Assembly: GCA_000004695.1 (NCBI GenBank)
Contig: CM000154.2
Coordinates: forward strand, 4,800,001 to 4,864,000
DNA: 64,000 bases
Direction of reading: 5' to 3'
DNA from: Dictyostelium discoideum
Lineage: Eukaryota
Within the stretch, counting starts at the first letter, position 1. Every line of letters begins with the position of its first letter. Position numbers and translations under genes: made by a program. The notes beneath the pieces are model-generated. The model worked only from the letters and a program-made list of their open reading frames with translations. It was not told the DNA's origin and ran no database searches. Shown here piece by piece: positions 2,105 through 32,721 of the stretch.

Positions 2105-3917
2105 TTATGATTCAAGTGGTTTATTAACATTATTAAATATTTTTACCTTAAATTCAATTGTTAATTTATCATCTTTAGTTAGCCAACCATTCTCTTGGGT
2201 AATTAAATTTGAATCTATAATATATGATCTTCCCCAACTCCAATCCCATTCCAAATCATCTATGTCTTTTAACTCTATTTTCGATTTTTTTTTTAAAAAA
2301 AAAAAAAATATTAGTTATTTTTTTTAAAATAATTCTTTAATTTAAATTAGTGATATTACTTTGCGTTTTAAATTTTATTGAATTTGTTTCATCCAAAACA
2401 TTAACCAATTTACAAATGAACTCAACATTTGTTCCTTCAATACTTTTACCCATCAAAAATATTGCAATTTTGTTTATTCTTGATAAACCATTTTGATAAA
2501 AAGAAAGATGAAATATATTTTGCAGAATATTGCACAGTGATTGGGATTTTAAAAAATTATTTTGATTAACTTGGAAAGATGGAGAATTTAATAAACTACC
2601 CTTTGGATTTTTTTTAACAATTTTTGAATAGTCTGAAATGATCCATTCGTTTTTGTATTTAAGTGCATTTAATGATAAAAGTTGGTCATTTTGTTTTTGA
2701 AGTTTATCACAAATAATTCTTGATAGTTCAAATTGTTTATTAAGGTTTTCTTGAGTTTTCTCTAATTGTTCAATCTTTTTAACAAGTTTATCACAAATAA
2801 TCTTTGACCGTTCATATTCTTTATAAAGATTTTCTTGGTTTTTCTCTGATTTTTCAATCGTTTTAACTAGTTTATCACAAATAATCTTTGATCTATTCTC
2901 ACCAATAATTCTTGATAATTCAAATTGTTTATTAAGGTTTTCTTGAGTTTTCTCTAATTGTTCAATCTTTTTAACATGTTTATCACAAATAATCTTTGAT
3001 CGATTCTCACAGATAACCTTTGATTGATCATATTCTTTATTAAGGATTTCTTGGTTCTTCTCTGATTGTTCAATCTTTTTAACAAGTTCATCTTGGATAT
3101 TATGTGATTGAATTAATTTTGAAGATAGTTTATCAATTAATATACCCATGAAATATTGATGATTTACATTATTTAAATGATTTTGTAACTCTGATCTCTT
3201 CATTTCAACTTTACAACCATATTCATAATATTTACATTGTATTGTTGAATTATTACAATCATTATTTATATGTGATTGAGTTTGATCTCTTTCAACCATA
3301 ATTGAACAACTTTGTGGACAGCCAATTGGAAATTTTGGACATTCATTATTATGGTTCTCTAATTCCTTTTGAATGGTATCATCACAAGCACAATATTTAC
3401 ATTTAACTAATTTGTAACCACATTGATTTTCATGTTCTTTCAATGAATTTAATCTTAAAACAACATCACATCCATTATGTGAACATTCAACAAATTTAAA
3501 TTTACAATTTTGTATATGTCTATCTAATTGATCTATATTTATTATTTCTTTACAACCATTCTCTTTATCTTTAACCAATGTTATATTTTCATCTAGATTT
3601 GCATAATCAATAAAATGATCATTATTGAATGAATAAATACAATAACATTCTTTTTTACCAAAACCTTGTTCAATTACTAAACATCTTGATAAATCATTGA
3701 TTGAATTTACTTTTGATCTACAAATCATACATTCTTTTTTAATTTTTAATGATTTCTCCCAACATTCTTTACATGCAAAATGACCGGATTTACATTGAAA
3801 AATTGATTTTTTATAAATAAATTCAAAACAAATTGGACATGAATATTTATTTTTCTTTTGTAATGATTCTATATTTAATAAAACATCATTTATTGTAAAT
3901 TTTGAATTTATTGACAT
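2105..3917 (-). CDS. TRAF-like protein: RING finger + TRAF-type zinc fingers + coiled coil + MATH domain; 2 exons (2360-3917, 2105-2274)
   Basis: The N-terminus has a C3HC4 RING pattern ([24 protein letters not shown]) followed by Cys/His-rich TRAF zinc-finger spacing. The ORF stop at 2337 is intron read-through. The donor is caaa|gtaatatc (2358-2359) and the acceptor is atag| (2275-2276). The terminal exon encodes ..[55 protein letters not shown], which matches the C-termini of the paralogs here. Confidence 0.85.
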
Positions 3918-4218
3918 TCTTTGTTATAAAAAATTGAAAAAATAACCAATTAATTAAAAAAAAATTTAAAAATTAATAAAAAAATTAATTGGTAATTAAA
4001 ATAATAGTAACAATTCCAAAAAAAAAAAAAAAAATTTTAAAAAAAACAAACAAAAATATTAGAAATTTTCAATAAAAAAATATTAAAATAAAATATTAAT
4101 AAGTAATAAAAATAATAAAAATAATAATAATCAAAAATAATAATAATAATAAATAATAATAATTAAAAAAAAAAATAAAAAAAAAAAAGATGTGGTTGTG
4201 TAAAAAATGAATTTTGTG

Positions 4219-4470
4219 TGGGTTGTTCAATTTTTAACACAAAAAACCAAAAAAAAGCTATTTTTAGGGATTACTTAATTGTATGTGTTAAAAATATTTT
4301 TTCAATATTTCCAGTTATTATTTCTCTTAAGAGAAATTGTGGGTGTAAAAAATATTTTTTTTTCTGTGTTGTTCAATTTTTAACACAAAAAAGTTTAAAA
4401 AACTAAAAAAGCTATTTTTAGGGATTGCTTAAAATTTTAAGTGTGTTATAAATATTTTTTCAATACTTGA
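4219..4470. repeat. Two tandem copies of a ~110-bp segment, each with a GT-rich hairpin (tgtgtt..gttcaattttt..aacaca), then gctatttttagggatt and gtgtgtt motifs
   Basis: Copy 1 is ~4219-4315 and copy 2 is ~4365-4470, ~85% identical. They lie 300-550 bp upstream of the TRAF-like gene start at 3917. Confidence 0.5.
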
Positions 4471-5094
4471 ATTATTATTTTTTTTATTTAAAAAAAATCT
4501 ATTTTGGGATTTTAAAAATAGAATAAACCCAAAAAAAAAAAAGTTATTTATTCATTCCCTAAAAAAAAAAACAAAAAAATAAAAAATTAAAAAAATAAAT
4601 GATATGTTATATTGGAGTGGTAAAACAAAAATACAATAAAAAAAAAAAAATGAGATAATTAATTTTAAAATTATTTTATTTTGTTTTTTTTTTTTTTTTG
4701 TTCTGAAGAAATAAACTTTTTTAATAAAATTTAATATTTTTAACTTGTAAGATTTTTAAATGGAATTATACTGGAAATTATAGAAGGGATATTGTGATTT
4801 TAATTACCATTTTTTTTTTTTTTTTTTTTTTTTTTTTTTGCATTAAATTGAGTTTTTCAAAACAAATAATCATAATATATTATTTTTTGGGTATTGAACA
4901 CGAAAAAAGAAACACCATTTTTATCAGTCATTAAGTAAGATAAAACGAAAATAATTATAAAAAAAAAAATGAATAAATGTTATAGATAATTAATGTTAGC
5001 TTTTTAAACAACAACTTTAGTTTTTAAATATTACAGTAATAATTCAAAAGTGAACATTTTATTTTATTTATTATAACAATATGGTGAGATTGAT

Positions 5095-30788: not shown

Positions 30789-30914
30789 AAAATAAATAAA
30801 TAAATAAAAATATATATTTTAAAATAAATAAATTTTTATATATAATACAATGATATTACTTGTTTATTTAAATAAAAGTGATAATATTTTAAATAATTAT
30901 AATAATTATTATTA

Positions 30915-31640
30915 TTTAATTTGTTATTGTACCAGTTCTCCATTCATTATTAATACATGGACTACCACCACGATCTCTGCCATAATAGTCATAAGTGTTT
31001 CTATTGCATTGAGAATCAGTACTACATGGTACTTTAACTGAGCATTCGATTGGTTTATGATAACAACCATATAACATTGAGCAAAAATCAGCTGTACAAG
31101 GGTCTTTATTTAAAATTAAATTTTAATGTTAGAAAAAATAATTTAAAATATTAAATTTAAAATTCTTAATTAAAAATTCTTACTATTATCATCACAATTC
31201 ATTGGAGTTATATTCACATCCTTTTTCACCACAAGTATCAAGTGTACATGCATCATAATCTGAACAACGAGTTTCATAATGATAACAATATCCACGGAAA
31301 TCACAAAAATCAACTGTACAAGATCTGGTTTTGTTTTTTTAAATTTATTTTTATTTTTATAAATAATTAATAAATAATTAATAATTTAGAAAAAAAATTT
31401 TAAATTTTAATAATAAAAATAAATTTACATACTATTATCGTTTCATTTTTGTTCACATGATTGAGTTGGTTCTGGTGGATTTACTGGTGCGTTGACACAA
31501 CCATATGGACCACAACTACAATTGTATTATTATTTCCATCATTACAAGTATCAGCAATTTGATAACAACTTCTAGTATTTTCATCACAATGATTGGTATG
31601 ACAAATATCAACATTACTTTTTGGGCATATATATATTTAC
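30915..31640 (-). CDS. Cys-rich repeat (CxxDFC..GCYH..C) extracellular-type protein gene; several small exons; frame disruptions suggest a pseudogene or an unresolved model
   Basis: Minus-strand translations give ..CPKSNVDICHTNHCDENTRSCYQIADTCNDGNNNT(frameshift)NCSCGPYGCVNAPVNPPEPTQSCEQK (31440-31640), ..RSCTVDFCDFRGYCYHYETRCSDYDACTLDTCGEKGCEYNSNEL* (31195-31325), and a terminal ..DPCTADFCSMLYGCYHKPIECSVKVPCSTDSQCNRNTYDYYGRDRGGSPCINNEWRTGTITN* ending at 30915. The repeats resemble Dictyostelium extracellular Cys-rich modules. I could not splice the exons into one clean frame. Confidence 0.35.
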
Positions 31641-31989
31641 TCGTTTCAAAACAACTAAACATTGGAGAACAAACAAAAATTTTACAATTTGTATTCTTAA
31701 ACTCTTTTTTCTTTTAATTTTTTGAAAATTTTAAATTATCTTTATTGATAATCAAAAAATAAAAAATTAACAAATTATTTTTTTTCTTGGATTTTTATTC
31801 TTATTTTTTTTTAAGTCTTTTCCCTTGTGTTTTTTTTTTTTTCTTTTGGAGATTTAAAAAAATAAGAGTATTATTATGCATTTTAAAATTATTATTGATT
31901 ATCATTAAAAAATTACTTAATTGTTTTTTTTATTGAATTTTTTTTTTTTTTTAAAAAAAGTTAAATTTTATTTTTTAGGATGTCAATGG

Positions 31990-32721
31990 TTGAATTTGAT
32001 TTATAATTTTAACATAAATTTCAGTTGCTAATTAATTTACATGATTTGAATATATTGACAATCGTTATCTATATGTTTTTCGATATCTTCCCTTTTAATT
32101 TTCATTTGACAACCTTTTAACAATCAATTTCATATTTTGGGCATTCAGTAAGATGATTTTTTACTTGATTCTTTGTGATAGATTTCATACAAAATGAACA
32201 TACTTTCAATTTATAACCATTGATATTCATGTTCTTGTAATGATTTTAATCTAACAATTTTATCACACCCTTTATATGAACATGGCACAAGTTTAAATTT
32301 ACAATTTTGTATATGACTATCTAATAGATCTACAGTTTTAATATCTTTACAGCCATTAATTTGATCTTATACTAATTTTTTTTTTAGATTTTCATCAAAA
32401 ACAATTTCCACTTAAAGTTGTGTAAGTGTAAGAATAAATACAAAAACATTCTTCTTTACTAAAAAACTGTTCAATTACTAAACATCTTGATAAATCATTG
32501 ATTAAATTTACTTTAATTCTACAAATCATACATTCTTTTTTATTTTTTAATGATGTTTCCCAACATCCTTGACATGCGAAATGGCCAGATTTACATTGAT
32601 AAATTGATTTCTTGTAAATAAATTCACAACAAATTGGACATGAATATTTATTATTATTTTGTAATGATTCTTGATTTAATAAAAAATCATTGATTGTAAA
32701 TTTGATATCAATTATTGACAT
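31990..32721 (-). pseudogene. TRAF-like pseudogene (RING + zinc-finger region present, multiple frameshifts, no MATH domain)
   Basis: ORF 32395-32721 encodes [85 protein letters not shown].. and then breaks frame. Recognisable zinc-finger homology continues in other frames to ~31990 (for example ..[20 protein letters not shown]..) with stops. Confidence 0.65.

Follow-up and report, generated by a model that had tools for sequence, protein, structure and literature searches.

How did three intact TRAF-like genes and three TRAF-like fragments come to lie together on one strand of Dictyostelium discoideum chromosome 5, and do all six belong to a single duplicating series? The window, by which we mean the whole 64-kb stretch of DNA that was analysed, comes from strain AX4 and covers the right-hand part of an annotated TRAF-like gene cluster. 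A sequence-only reading had described it as holding six gene copies with RING, TRAF zinc finger and MATH domains at different stages of decay. We conclude, with a probability of roughly 85%, that the window brings together RING E3 ubiquitin ligases from two lineages, namely the old trafE gene and a DG17-type array with remnants made by deletion.

Six TRAF-like pieces in the window

Searches with tblastn recovered six TRAF-like pieces, all on the minus strand and close to where the sequence-only reading had placed them, while 11 diverse family queries revealed no further TRAF-like remnant in the 64 kb (E ≤ 0.01). The three gene models that had been called intact paralogs match annotated AX4 proteins exactly; that they are named genes already in the literature had gone unrecognised in the sequence-only reading. 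According to exact look-ups, the two larger remnants are annotated in AX4 as short hypothetical proteins and the 22-codon relic alone is unannotated. The features discussed below are the following:

2105..3917, minus strand: copy 1, DDB_G0290965 (Q54FC5, 'DdTRAFm'), 575 aa, exact match
2791..3092, minus strand: tandem repeat in the copy 1 coiled coil, 108 bp (36 aa) x 2.8 (TRF)
about 5100..5795, minus strand: 5'-deleted remnant, DDB_G0291041 (Q54FC4), 101-aa hypothetical protein
10110..12450, minus strand: segment duplicated as trafC, 2.3 kb, comprising trafD, ~650 bp upstream and ~165 bp downstream
10278..11798, minus strand: copy 2, DG17 / zfaA / trafD (P11467, DDB_G0290961), 460 aa, exact match
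12963..14596, plus strand: cysteine proteinase 1 (cprA, P04988), 343 aa, six exons, exact match
14825..16254, minus strand: copy 3, trafE (DDB_G0290971, Q54FB9), 445 aa, exact match
28724..28816, minus strand: 5'-end relic of a DG17-type gene, unannotated (22 codons at 28738-28803)
about 31975..32721, minus strand: internally deleted remnant, DDB_G0291035 (Q54FB2), 112 aa in AX4

The cysteine proteinase 1, xdh and dad1 genes are present among the copies, as had been stated, but cysteine proteinase 1 is developmentally regulated and is not a housekeeping gene. Locus-tag numbers are not strictly positional (cprA and an abhydrolase gene are out of order), so distances were taken from record coordinates only. 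The window contains an assembly gap of 100 N at 478-577, and it differs by 0.4-0.5% from a long-read assembly, mostly outside the six TRAF-like pieces, which are all identical there.

trafE is a separate, conserved lineage

The intact copies had been thought to share a single intron shortly before the end of the MATH domain. This is true of copies 1 and 2, which carry a phase-1 3' intron, and not of copy 3, whose exons (16254..16121 and 16028..14825) are separated by a sole 92-bp, phase-2 intron at 16029-16120, after codon 45 and inside the RING; its MATH domain has no intron. The N-terminus of copy 3, MTVKYSINELLVDHESL, is unlike the DG17-type one. Its RING gave only sub-threshold profile matches (24.1 bits), with the C-x2-C...C-x-H-x2-C-x2-C...C-x2-C pattern present, and Pfam found zf-TRAF (34.2 bits, cut-off 27) and MATH (55 bits). 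1:1 orthologues of trafE were found at 75-97% identity, with a dN/dS of 0.11 and a dS of 0.10 (like all values given here, these are pairwise NG86 estimates on short AT-rich sequences and approximate; the inter-strain dS baseline is ~0.10). In neighbour-joining trees, built without bootstrap support and with two non-cluster relatives as proxies of the dispersed family in place of TrafA and TrafB, trafE was set apart from the DG17-type copies, as it is by its intron position, and was at least as distant from copies 1 and 2 as members of the family encoded elsewhere in the genome. The different intron position and the lack of any special closeness to copies 1 and 2 place trafE outside the duplication series: it is an old, conserved, single-copy gene of a separate lineage.

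The identity of DDB_G0290971 as trafE is given by Raykov 2023 (PMC10181826), where TrafE is described as an E3 ligase of the response to membrane damage, which damaged endolysosomes and Mycobacterium-containing vacuoles recruit, and where the knockout had fewer K63-polyubiquitin-positive vacuoles. Of the window copies, trafE alone has published evidence of ligase function.

The DG17-type clade

The other five pieces (copies 1 and 2 and the three remnants) form the DG17-type clade. Two features mark this clade and are missing from copy 3. One is a phase-1 intron with 50-56 codons after it, seen in copies 1 and 2 as well as in the 5.1-5.8 kb remnant; the other is a characteristic 25-residue N-terminus, which copies 1 and 2 share with the relic and the 32.7 kb remnant.

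Copy 2 consists of exons 11798..10568 and 10429..10278 around a 138-bp phase-1 intron (10430-10567). The (AAT)n reported earlier in this intron turned out to be 26 uninterrupted units at 10472-10549 (TRF). Its domains all score clearly in Pfam (Sina_RING 31.1 bits, cut-off 29.3; zf-TRAF 85.6, cut-off 27; MATH 71 bits), and both of its ends are matched by the trafD primers of Raykov 2023 (PMC10181826). The gene stands head-to-head with cprA, the two being divergently transcribed with 1.16 kb between them. DG17 was described as a member of a cAMP-inducible divergent gene pair by Driscoll & Williams 1987, as cited in PMC5122030. Copy 2 corresponds to DG17/zfaA of that pair, being identical to P11467 and head-to-head with cprA. 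From the genomic arrangement here, we take the second gene of the pair to be CP1.

The trafD segment has a dispersed, 92%-identical copy, trafC (DDB_G0290883), ~130 kb to the left. The dS between trafC and trafD is 0.041 (dN/dS 0.47, NG86) against an inter-strain baseline of ~0.10, which makes this duplication younger than the strain split; trafD has a dN/dS of 0.28 (NG86).

Copy 1, for which the name DdTRAFm is taken from Table 2 of Dunn 2018 (PMC5758549), is split by an 85-bp phase-1 intron (2275-2359) into exons 3917..2360 and 2274..2105. It encodes a RING (Sina_RING, 34.6 bits, cut-off 29.3), TRAF zinc fingers (PF02176, 71.6 bits, cut-off 27), an expanded coiled coil that includes the tandem repeat, and a divergent MATH-like end. 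No Pfam MATH match was obtained for copy 1, even at E ≤ 10 (PF00917 / PF22486); its C-terminus is 37% identical to the MATH domain of DG17 (E 3e-26) and is probably, on this alignment, a divergent MATH homologue. Against the CR116C genes that occupy its position, copy 1 showed a dN/dS of 0.55-0.76 and a dS of ~0.20 (NG86), twice the inter-strain baseline, and these CR116C genes are therefore not its true orthologues.

The remnants trace to full-length genes in other assemblies

For each of the three remnants, another assembly (CR116C, OT3A or ACTFIY) has an intact full-length gene in its place, between collinear flanks that are 87-95% identical at the nucleotide level. The corresponding deletions measure 0.63 kb (inside the gene), ~1.2 kb (the 5' end) and 4.25 kb (the 3' end plus a neighbouring gene), and short A/T microhomology is found at their junctions. 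Judged from these alignments, each remnant was once a full-length gene and is explained by one simple deletion.

The 5.1-5.8 kb remnant retains only the end of the coiled coil and the MATH part, in line with its earlier description as a 3' fragment lacking RING and zinc fingers. It carries two frameshifts and one stop, keeps the family 3' intron, and gives a conceptual translation that matches MATH_2 (1e-7). The intact 543-aa gene ACTFIR_002736 occupies its position in CR116C, relative to which ~1.17 kb is missing at the 5' end. A second copy of the MATH fragment, 95% identical, lies ~30 kb away.

In the 32.7 kb remnant, earlier read as a frameshifted 5' copy, the RING is intact and is followed by recognisable but broken TRAF zinc fingers, with at least three frameshifts and in-frame stops. 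The last ~15 MATH codons are kept beyond a deletion junction at 32033/32035, and the same 630-bp gap is found against ACTFIW_008977 (427 aa) and against ACTFIY_000982 (402 aa), both of them intact orthologues by position.

The relic consists of a short upstream stretch and 22 codons that end in an A-run, with the deletion junction at 28733-28737. Its signal within the window is weak (tblastn E 0.14-0.35). Two comparisons back its reading as the start of a lost gene: ACTFIW_008985, the intact OT3A gene at this position, matches it with its 5' end over 93 bp (79.6%, E 7e-16), and the N-termini of the family do so over 26 aa (77%). AX4 lacks L005 10330-14583 at this locus, that is, the rest of ACTFIW_008985 and a kinase-like gene.

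Errors in an AT-rich, homopolymer-rich reference could in principle make intact genes look broken, and the window does contain the gap at 478-577. The missing parts, however, amount to 0.6-4 kb and not to single bases, and in the independent Nanopore+Illumina assembly of AX2-214 (GCA_054883475.1) copies 1 and 2 and each of the remnants reappear with 100% identity over 251-1813 bp, lesions included. We consequently rejected sequencing or assembly error, which has next to no credibility as an explanation of the broken copies.

A second alternative is that the remnants are retrocopies or fragments carried by transposons, and did not decay in place. It draws on the A-run at the end of the relic, which had been described as truncated into poly-A, and on integrase-bearing elements just left of the window. 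This origin is very improbable, given that the 5.1-5.8 kb remnant keeps its intron, that collinear orthologous flanks surround all three remnants, and that the A-run is already present as orthologous intergenic sequence upstream of dad1 in OT3A and ACTFIY; together, these observations are not those expected of processed pseudogenes. No target-site duplications or transposon ends were seen beside the fragments. For the relic itself, the orthologous flanks and the pre-existing A-run rule out a retrocopy: it stops in an A-run where a deletion has its junction.

The two larger fragments might instead be alive, as truncated RING-only (DDB_G0291035) and MATH-only (DDB_G0291041) ligases, decoys or regulators of full-length TRAF-like proteins. 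The AX4 and AX2-214 annotations list them both as coding for proteins, short RING-only or MATH-only gene calls exist in other assemblies too, as does the 142-aa DDB_G0290941 in AX4, and the MATH fragment has its 95%-identical second copy. The 32.7 kb remnant preserves the cysteines and the histidine of its RING, and the first 107 codons of the RING ORF have a dN/dS of 0.39 compared with 0.34 between intact genes; a value near the family average is, however, expected after recent loss, so that it is not proof of constraint. Moreover, stops and at least three frameshifts follow directly after this RING, and one zinc-finger piece has a dN/dS of 1.39, over 33 codons only. Two thirds of the gene are gone from the MATH fragment, along with the start codon and the promoter-proximal DNA, and the frames are broken upstream of its annotated ATG. 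On balance, live short genes appear unlikely, although less so than the two preceding alternatives, and we retain the reading of the fragments as deletion remnants.

Turnover of the array between strains

Between dad1 and a flanking gene of 651 aa, OT3A has nine TRAF-like genes, CR116C at least five, and ACTFIY one plus a MATH fragment, while AX4 has TRAF-like remnants only. In the neighbour-joining trees, again without bootstrap support, the window copies group with genes of other strains and not with each other. Trees and dS values together ruled out concerted evolution as well as a single tandem array of recent date, in agreement with the earlier view that this is not one recent array: each window copy has nearer relatives in other strains or species. 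The idea of repeated local duplication and piecemeal loss likewise stands, given the intact positional counterparts of all three remnants, provided that copy 3 is left outside the series, and birth-and-death evolution describes well the remnants, the trees and the variation in copy number between assemblies.

The DG17-type clade is thus in rapid turnover. From the end states compared here, among which no recombination intermediate was seen, the array would grow as head-to-tail copies are duplicated, locally or to dispersed sites, and shrink as deletions occur between paralogues or between short microhomologies rich in A/T. One remnant also gathered frameshifts after its deletion, and the newer copies may be under relaxed constraint. 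This turnover could be neutral.

Relation to known systems and significance

The TRIM clusters of vertebrates and the NLR clusters of plants are multigene families of innate immunity that evolve by birth and death. The window cluster resembles them in its tandem same-strand paralogues, pseudogene remnants and lineage-specific gains and losses, in having a conserved core member next to fast-turning ones, and in a partner-binding C-terminal domain that changes faster; unlike in those clusters, an immune role is shown for trafE only. By analogy, the DG17-type array may tentatively be viewed as a set of fast-turning, strain-specific ligases of cell-autonomous defence, kept variable by selection on the partner-binding MATH domain, a proposal we consider possible but rather doubtful.

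The D. discoideum TRAF-like family is reported to comprise more than 40 proteins, 16 of them with RING and zinc finger as well as TRAF domains, and the intact genes of the window are published members of it: DDB_G0290971 (DdTRAFe/trafE), DDB_G0290961 (DdTRAFd/trafD) and DDB_G0290965 (DdTRAFm) (PMC5758549; PMC10181826). The three genes and the family expansion are already known, the genes being annotated and two of them published and studied experimentally, so the finding by itself adds little. As far as their searchable text goes, these two papers cover the proteins and leave the locus aside, and that text contains no mention of the remnants, the deletions or the differences in copy number between strains. 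What is modestly new is that the 'hypothetical proteins' DDB_G0291041 and DDB_G0291035 of AX4 are deletion remnants of TRAF-like genes, that a third, unannotated relic exists, and that a block of TRAF-like genes present in other isolates is missing from the laboratory lineage.

This bears on the use of AX2/AX4 as an infection model: the Traf redundancy that has been invoked for the partial phenotype of the trafE knockout may differ between strains. If the defence proposal were true, AX2/AX4 would have lost most of a block kept by wild relatives (~8 OT3A genes and the kinase-like gene), and the defence repertoire of the species would be under-represented by its laboratory strains.

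Six TRAF-like regions in the window

Annotation and literature already cover the genes, the TRAF-like family and its expansion. Three gene models were built by hand on the minus strand of the window, whose G+C content is ~22%, and were then compared by exact look-up with the annotated AX4 proteins. A tblastn search with these proteins returned exactly six TRAF-like regions, all on the minus strand, as the sequence-only reading had proposed, and 11 more diverse family queries revealed no further TRAF-like pieces in the window.

TRAF-like regions of the window, with AX4 annotation from exact look-up
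3917..2360 + 2274..2105, minus strand: copy 1, DDB_G0290965 (Q54FC5), 575 aa, exact match
5100-5795, minus strand: 5.1-5.8 kb remnant, coiled-coil end and MATH domain only; hypothetical protein DDB_G0291041 (Q54FC4), 101 aa
11798..10568 + 10429..10278, minus strand: copy 2, 'RING finger protein DG17' (P11467), 460 aa, exact match
16254..16121 + 16028..14825, minus strand: copy 3, DDB_G0290971 (Q54FB9), 445 aa, exact match
28738-28803, minus strand: relic, the start of a TRAF-like gene, 22 codons into an A-tract; no annotation
32721-31975, minus strand: 32.7 kb remnant; DDB_G0291035 (Q54FB2), 'Sina-like RING finger domain-containing', 112 aa (144 aa in newer annotation)

Copies 3, 2 and 1 are the DdTRAFe (DDB_G0290971), DdTRAFd (DDB_G0290961) and DdTRAFm (DDB_G0290965) of Dunn et al. 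2018 (PMC5758549), and citations of DG17 as the TRAF relative in Dictyostelium go back to the 1990s (PMC3757440). Damaged endolysosomes and Mycobacterium-containing vacuoles recruit TrafE (DDB_G0290971), which coordinates ESCRT and autophagy (Raykov et al. 2023, PMC10181826). The first and last codons of copy 2 are matched by the trafC/trafD primers of that study, whose authors put the similarity between TrafC (DDB_G0290883) and TrafD at 95.56%. A role as RING E3 ligase has literature support for trafE only, and is predicted for DDB_G0290965 from its domains. No mention of DDB_G0291041 or DDB_G0291035 was found in the searchable literature.

Pfam supported RING, zf-TRAF and MATH domains in copies 2 and 3. 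In copy 1 Pfam found no MATH domain even at E<=10; its C-terminus nevertheless shares 37% identity with the MATH domain of DG17 (E 3e-26). The C-terminus of this intact gene (2105-2590) has no Pfam MATH match whereas the translation of the dead fragment (5100-5680) matches MATH_2 (1e-7, 32.6 bits). The coiled coil of copy 1 contains a 108-bp (36-aa) tandem repeat of 2.8 copies (2791-3092). Related proteins in other strains are 514-718 aa long, and the repeat seems to account for variation in the length of the coiled coil.

The exon structure, described earlier as shared by the intact copies, is common to copy 1, copy 2 and the 5.1-5.8 kb remnant, in which the last 50-56 codons follow a phase-1 intron, but not to copy 3. 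Its sole intron (16029-16120, phase 2) lies after codon 45 within the RING, and none occurs at the 3′ family position. The AAT repeat noted in the copy 2 intron is an (AAT)26 tract.

The 5100-5795 piece runs through three different frames with one stop and keeps the intron at the family position. The 32.7 kb remnant, previously read as a frameshifted 5′ copy, consists of an intact 108-codon RING ORF followed by TRAF zinc fingers interrupted by stops and three or more frameshifts; the final ~15 codons survive too. For the relic, matches within the window alone were not significant (tblastn, E 0.14-0.35); its identification comes from family N-termini (77-80% over 25-26 aa) and from an intact gene that another strain has at the same position, whose 5′ end it matches at 79.6% over 93 bp (E 7e-16).

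Sequencing error was ruled out as the source of the lesions because an independent assembly carries the same sequence. In GCA_054883475.1, a Nanopore+Illumina assembly of the same laboratory lineage that we took as AX2-214 of Holland et al. 2025 (PMC12745789), the three remnants and copies 1 and 2 are 100% identical to the window, overall identity being 99.5%.

Intact counterparts of the remnants in other assemblies

Same-position loci were compared in ACTFIR (probably CR116C; loci L002 and L008), ACTFIW (probably OT3A; L003 and L005) and ACTFIY (L009; 'cf. discoideum', possibly a cryptic species), the first two strain names being assigned via the assembly table of Holland et al. 2025 (PMC12745789). 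The single-copy genes on either side are collinear across these assemblies (87-95% nucleotide identity), and intact counterparts occupy all three remnant positions. Each remnant results from an independent deletion in a once-intact gene, with short A/T microhomology at the junctions, one deletion being then followed by frameshifts.

In CR116C, the 512/520-aa gene DDB_G0290967 is followed by an intact 543-aa TRAF-like gene where AX4 has the 5.1-5.8 kb remnant, and then by a 597-aa TRAF-like gene at the copy 1 position. The remnant and the 543-aa gene have upstream intergenic motifs in common; in AX4 ~1.17 kb is missing, from the proximal promoter and ATG through the RING and zinc fingers into the coiled coil, most of which is gone.

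The 32.7 kb remnant has the same flanks (a 651-aa gene, Got1 and Rpb6) as the intact ACTFIW_008977 (427 aa) and ACTFIY_000982 (402 aa), and shows the same 630-bp internal gap against both, with the junction at 32033/32035. Its RING ORF gave a dS of 0.15 and a dN/dS of 0.39 against the OT3A gene; an intact/intact pair gave 0.34, and from this closeness the inactivation looks recent.

The relic is the start of ACTFIW_008985. The following 4.25 kb, holding the rest of this gene and a kinase-like gene that adjoins dad1 in both OT3A and CR116C, is absent from AX4, and the junction lies within the A-run, which is orthologous intergenic sequence. The kinase-like gene (L005 12561-14061, L008 12322-14169; 437-547 aa, weak Pkinase match) has no counterpart around 28700 in the window; it is missing in AX4/AX2 through the same 4.25-kb deletion, and also in ACTFIY.

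Copy number differences and the larger cluster

The interval between the relic and the 32.7 kb remnant differs widely in content.

Content of the relic-to-32.7 kb-remnant interval
OT3A: nine TRAF-like gene calls
CR116C: at least five TRAF-like genes
ACTFIY: one intact TRAF-like gene and a 113-aa MATH-only fragment
AX4: an alpha/beta-hydrolase and a CTDC-repeat gene call

The AX4 hydrolase (Q54FB4, 29775-30788) shares at least 90% identity with its paralogue, vegetative-specific protein H5 (P14326), and with a third AX4 copy. Neither the hydrolase nor the CTDC-repeat gene (about 30905-32094) is present in this interval in OT3A, CR116C or ACTFIY. They stand where OT3A and CR116C have a TRAF-like array, apparently through a replacement confined to the laboratory lineage.

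In the AX2-214 assembly, integrase-bearing (rve) retroelement genes border the 100-N gap (window 478-577), and seven more TRAF-like gene calls form an array ~26-35 kb left of the window (L001 13370-21813, L006); their proteins had no AX4 accession in the look-up. Within this array the 5.1-5.8 kb remnant recurs as a 95% copy (of window 4938-5532) in inverted orientation, next to sequence that matches the upstream region of copy 1 and its 5′ half at 83-93%. The six pieces thus form one end of a cluster that is larger and rearranging.

Two lineages within the cluster

A neighbour-joining tree built on the RING and zinc-finger region grouped copy 3 tightly with its orthologues, on a long branch away from the rest of the cluster, and when non-cluster relatives and a cnidarian TRAF6-like outgroup were included, trafE joined the non-cluster members, not copies 1 and 2. 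Bit scores point the same way: copy 2 reached 244 with trafE and 255 with a D. firmibasis protein encoded at another genomic location. One-to-one trafE orthologues were found in other D. discoideum (97%), two cf. discoideum assemblies (96% and 89%), D. citrinum (81%), D. dimigraforme (79%) and D. firmibasis (75%); dN/dS was 0.11 and dS (0.10) equalled the neighbour baseline (xdh 0.08, DDB_G0290967 0.09). These sequence comparisons set trafE apart as a lineage separate from the DG17-type pieces (copies 1 and 2 and the three remnants), two lineages and not one series.

DG17/trafD orthologues are 91% identical (dN/dS 0.28). trafC lies ~130 kb further left among other genes; it is a dispersed duplicate of trafD, with 2.3 kb that match window 10110-12450 at 92%. 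With a dS of 0.041, the duplication is younger than the strain split. TrafC (L007 10001-11478) and TrafD (10278-11798) differ at 20 amino acids; the MATH domain accounts for 13 of these, and the RING is unchanged. According to published observation, TrafC, not TrafD, is recruited to Mycobacterium-containing vacuoles, and this pattern of differences may bear on that. Copy 1 and the same-position CR116C gene are only 66% identical (dN/dS 0.55-0.76); as their dS of ~0.20 is twice the baseline, different paralogues have been retained in different strains.

Neighbouring genes

The neighbours named in the sequence-only reading (cysteine proteinase, xdh and dad1) are present. DG17 is a cAMP-induced, aggregation-stage gene. 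Copy 2 and cysteine proteinase 1 (P04988; the gene model is an exact match) form a head-to-head pair, a layout that fits the title of Driscoll & Williams 1987 as it stands in a reference list, 'Two divergently transcribed genes ... cyclic AMP-inducible and coregulated' (PMC5122030). The 1.16-kb divergent spacer contains a 102-bp tandem repeat (12465-12794; 3.2 copies, 90% matches), shortly before which, at 12450, the homology of the trafC duplicate ends. Overlapping alignments suggest one extra unit in the AX2-214 long-read assembly, and the repeat region could be the site of shared cAMP-response elements.

Between trafE and xdh lies a very long low-complexity minus-strand gene (16558-22036; ORF of at least 1617 aa, gene calls of 1769-1934 aa across assemblies) with poly-N, T/P-rich and (ERLEK)n repeats. 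An (ATTT)74 microsatellite (9404-9694) is directly upstream of the DNA2/NAM7-helicase-like DDB_G0290969.

Birth and death of the DG17-type genes

Taken together, the three deletions, one recent dispersed duplication (trafC/trafD) and the large copy-number differences between assemblies support the birth-and-death reading, with trafE set apart as a separate lineage. Arrays would grow by unequal exchange among head-to-tail copies and shrink by microhomology-mediated or paralogue-mediated deletion, while newer copies may be under relaxed or diversifying selection, above all in the MATH domain. New here are the identification of what two 'hypothetical proteins' are, the relic, and the gene loss in the laboratory lineage, details that are unsurprising but useful to Dictyostelium infection biologists.
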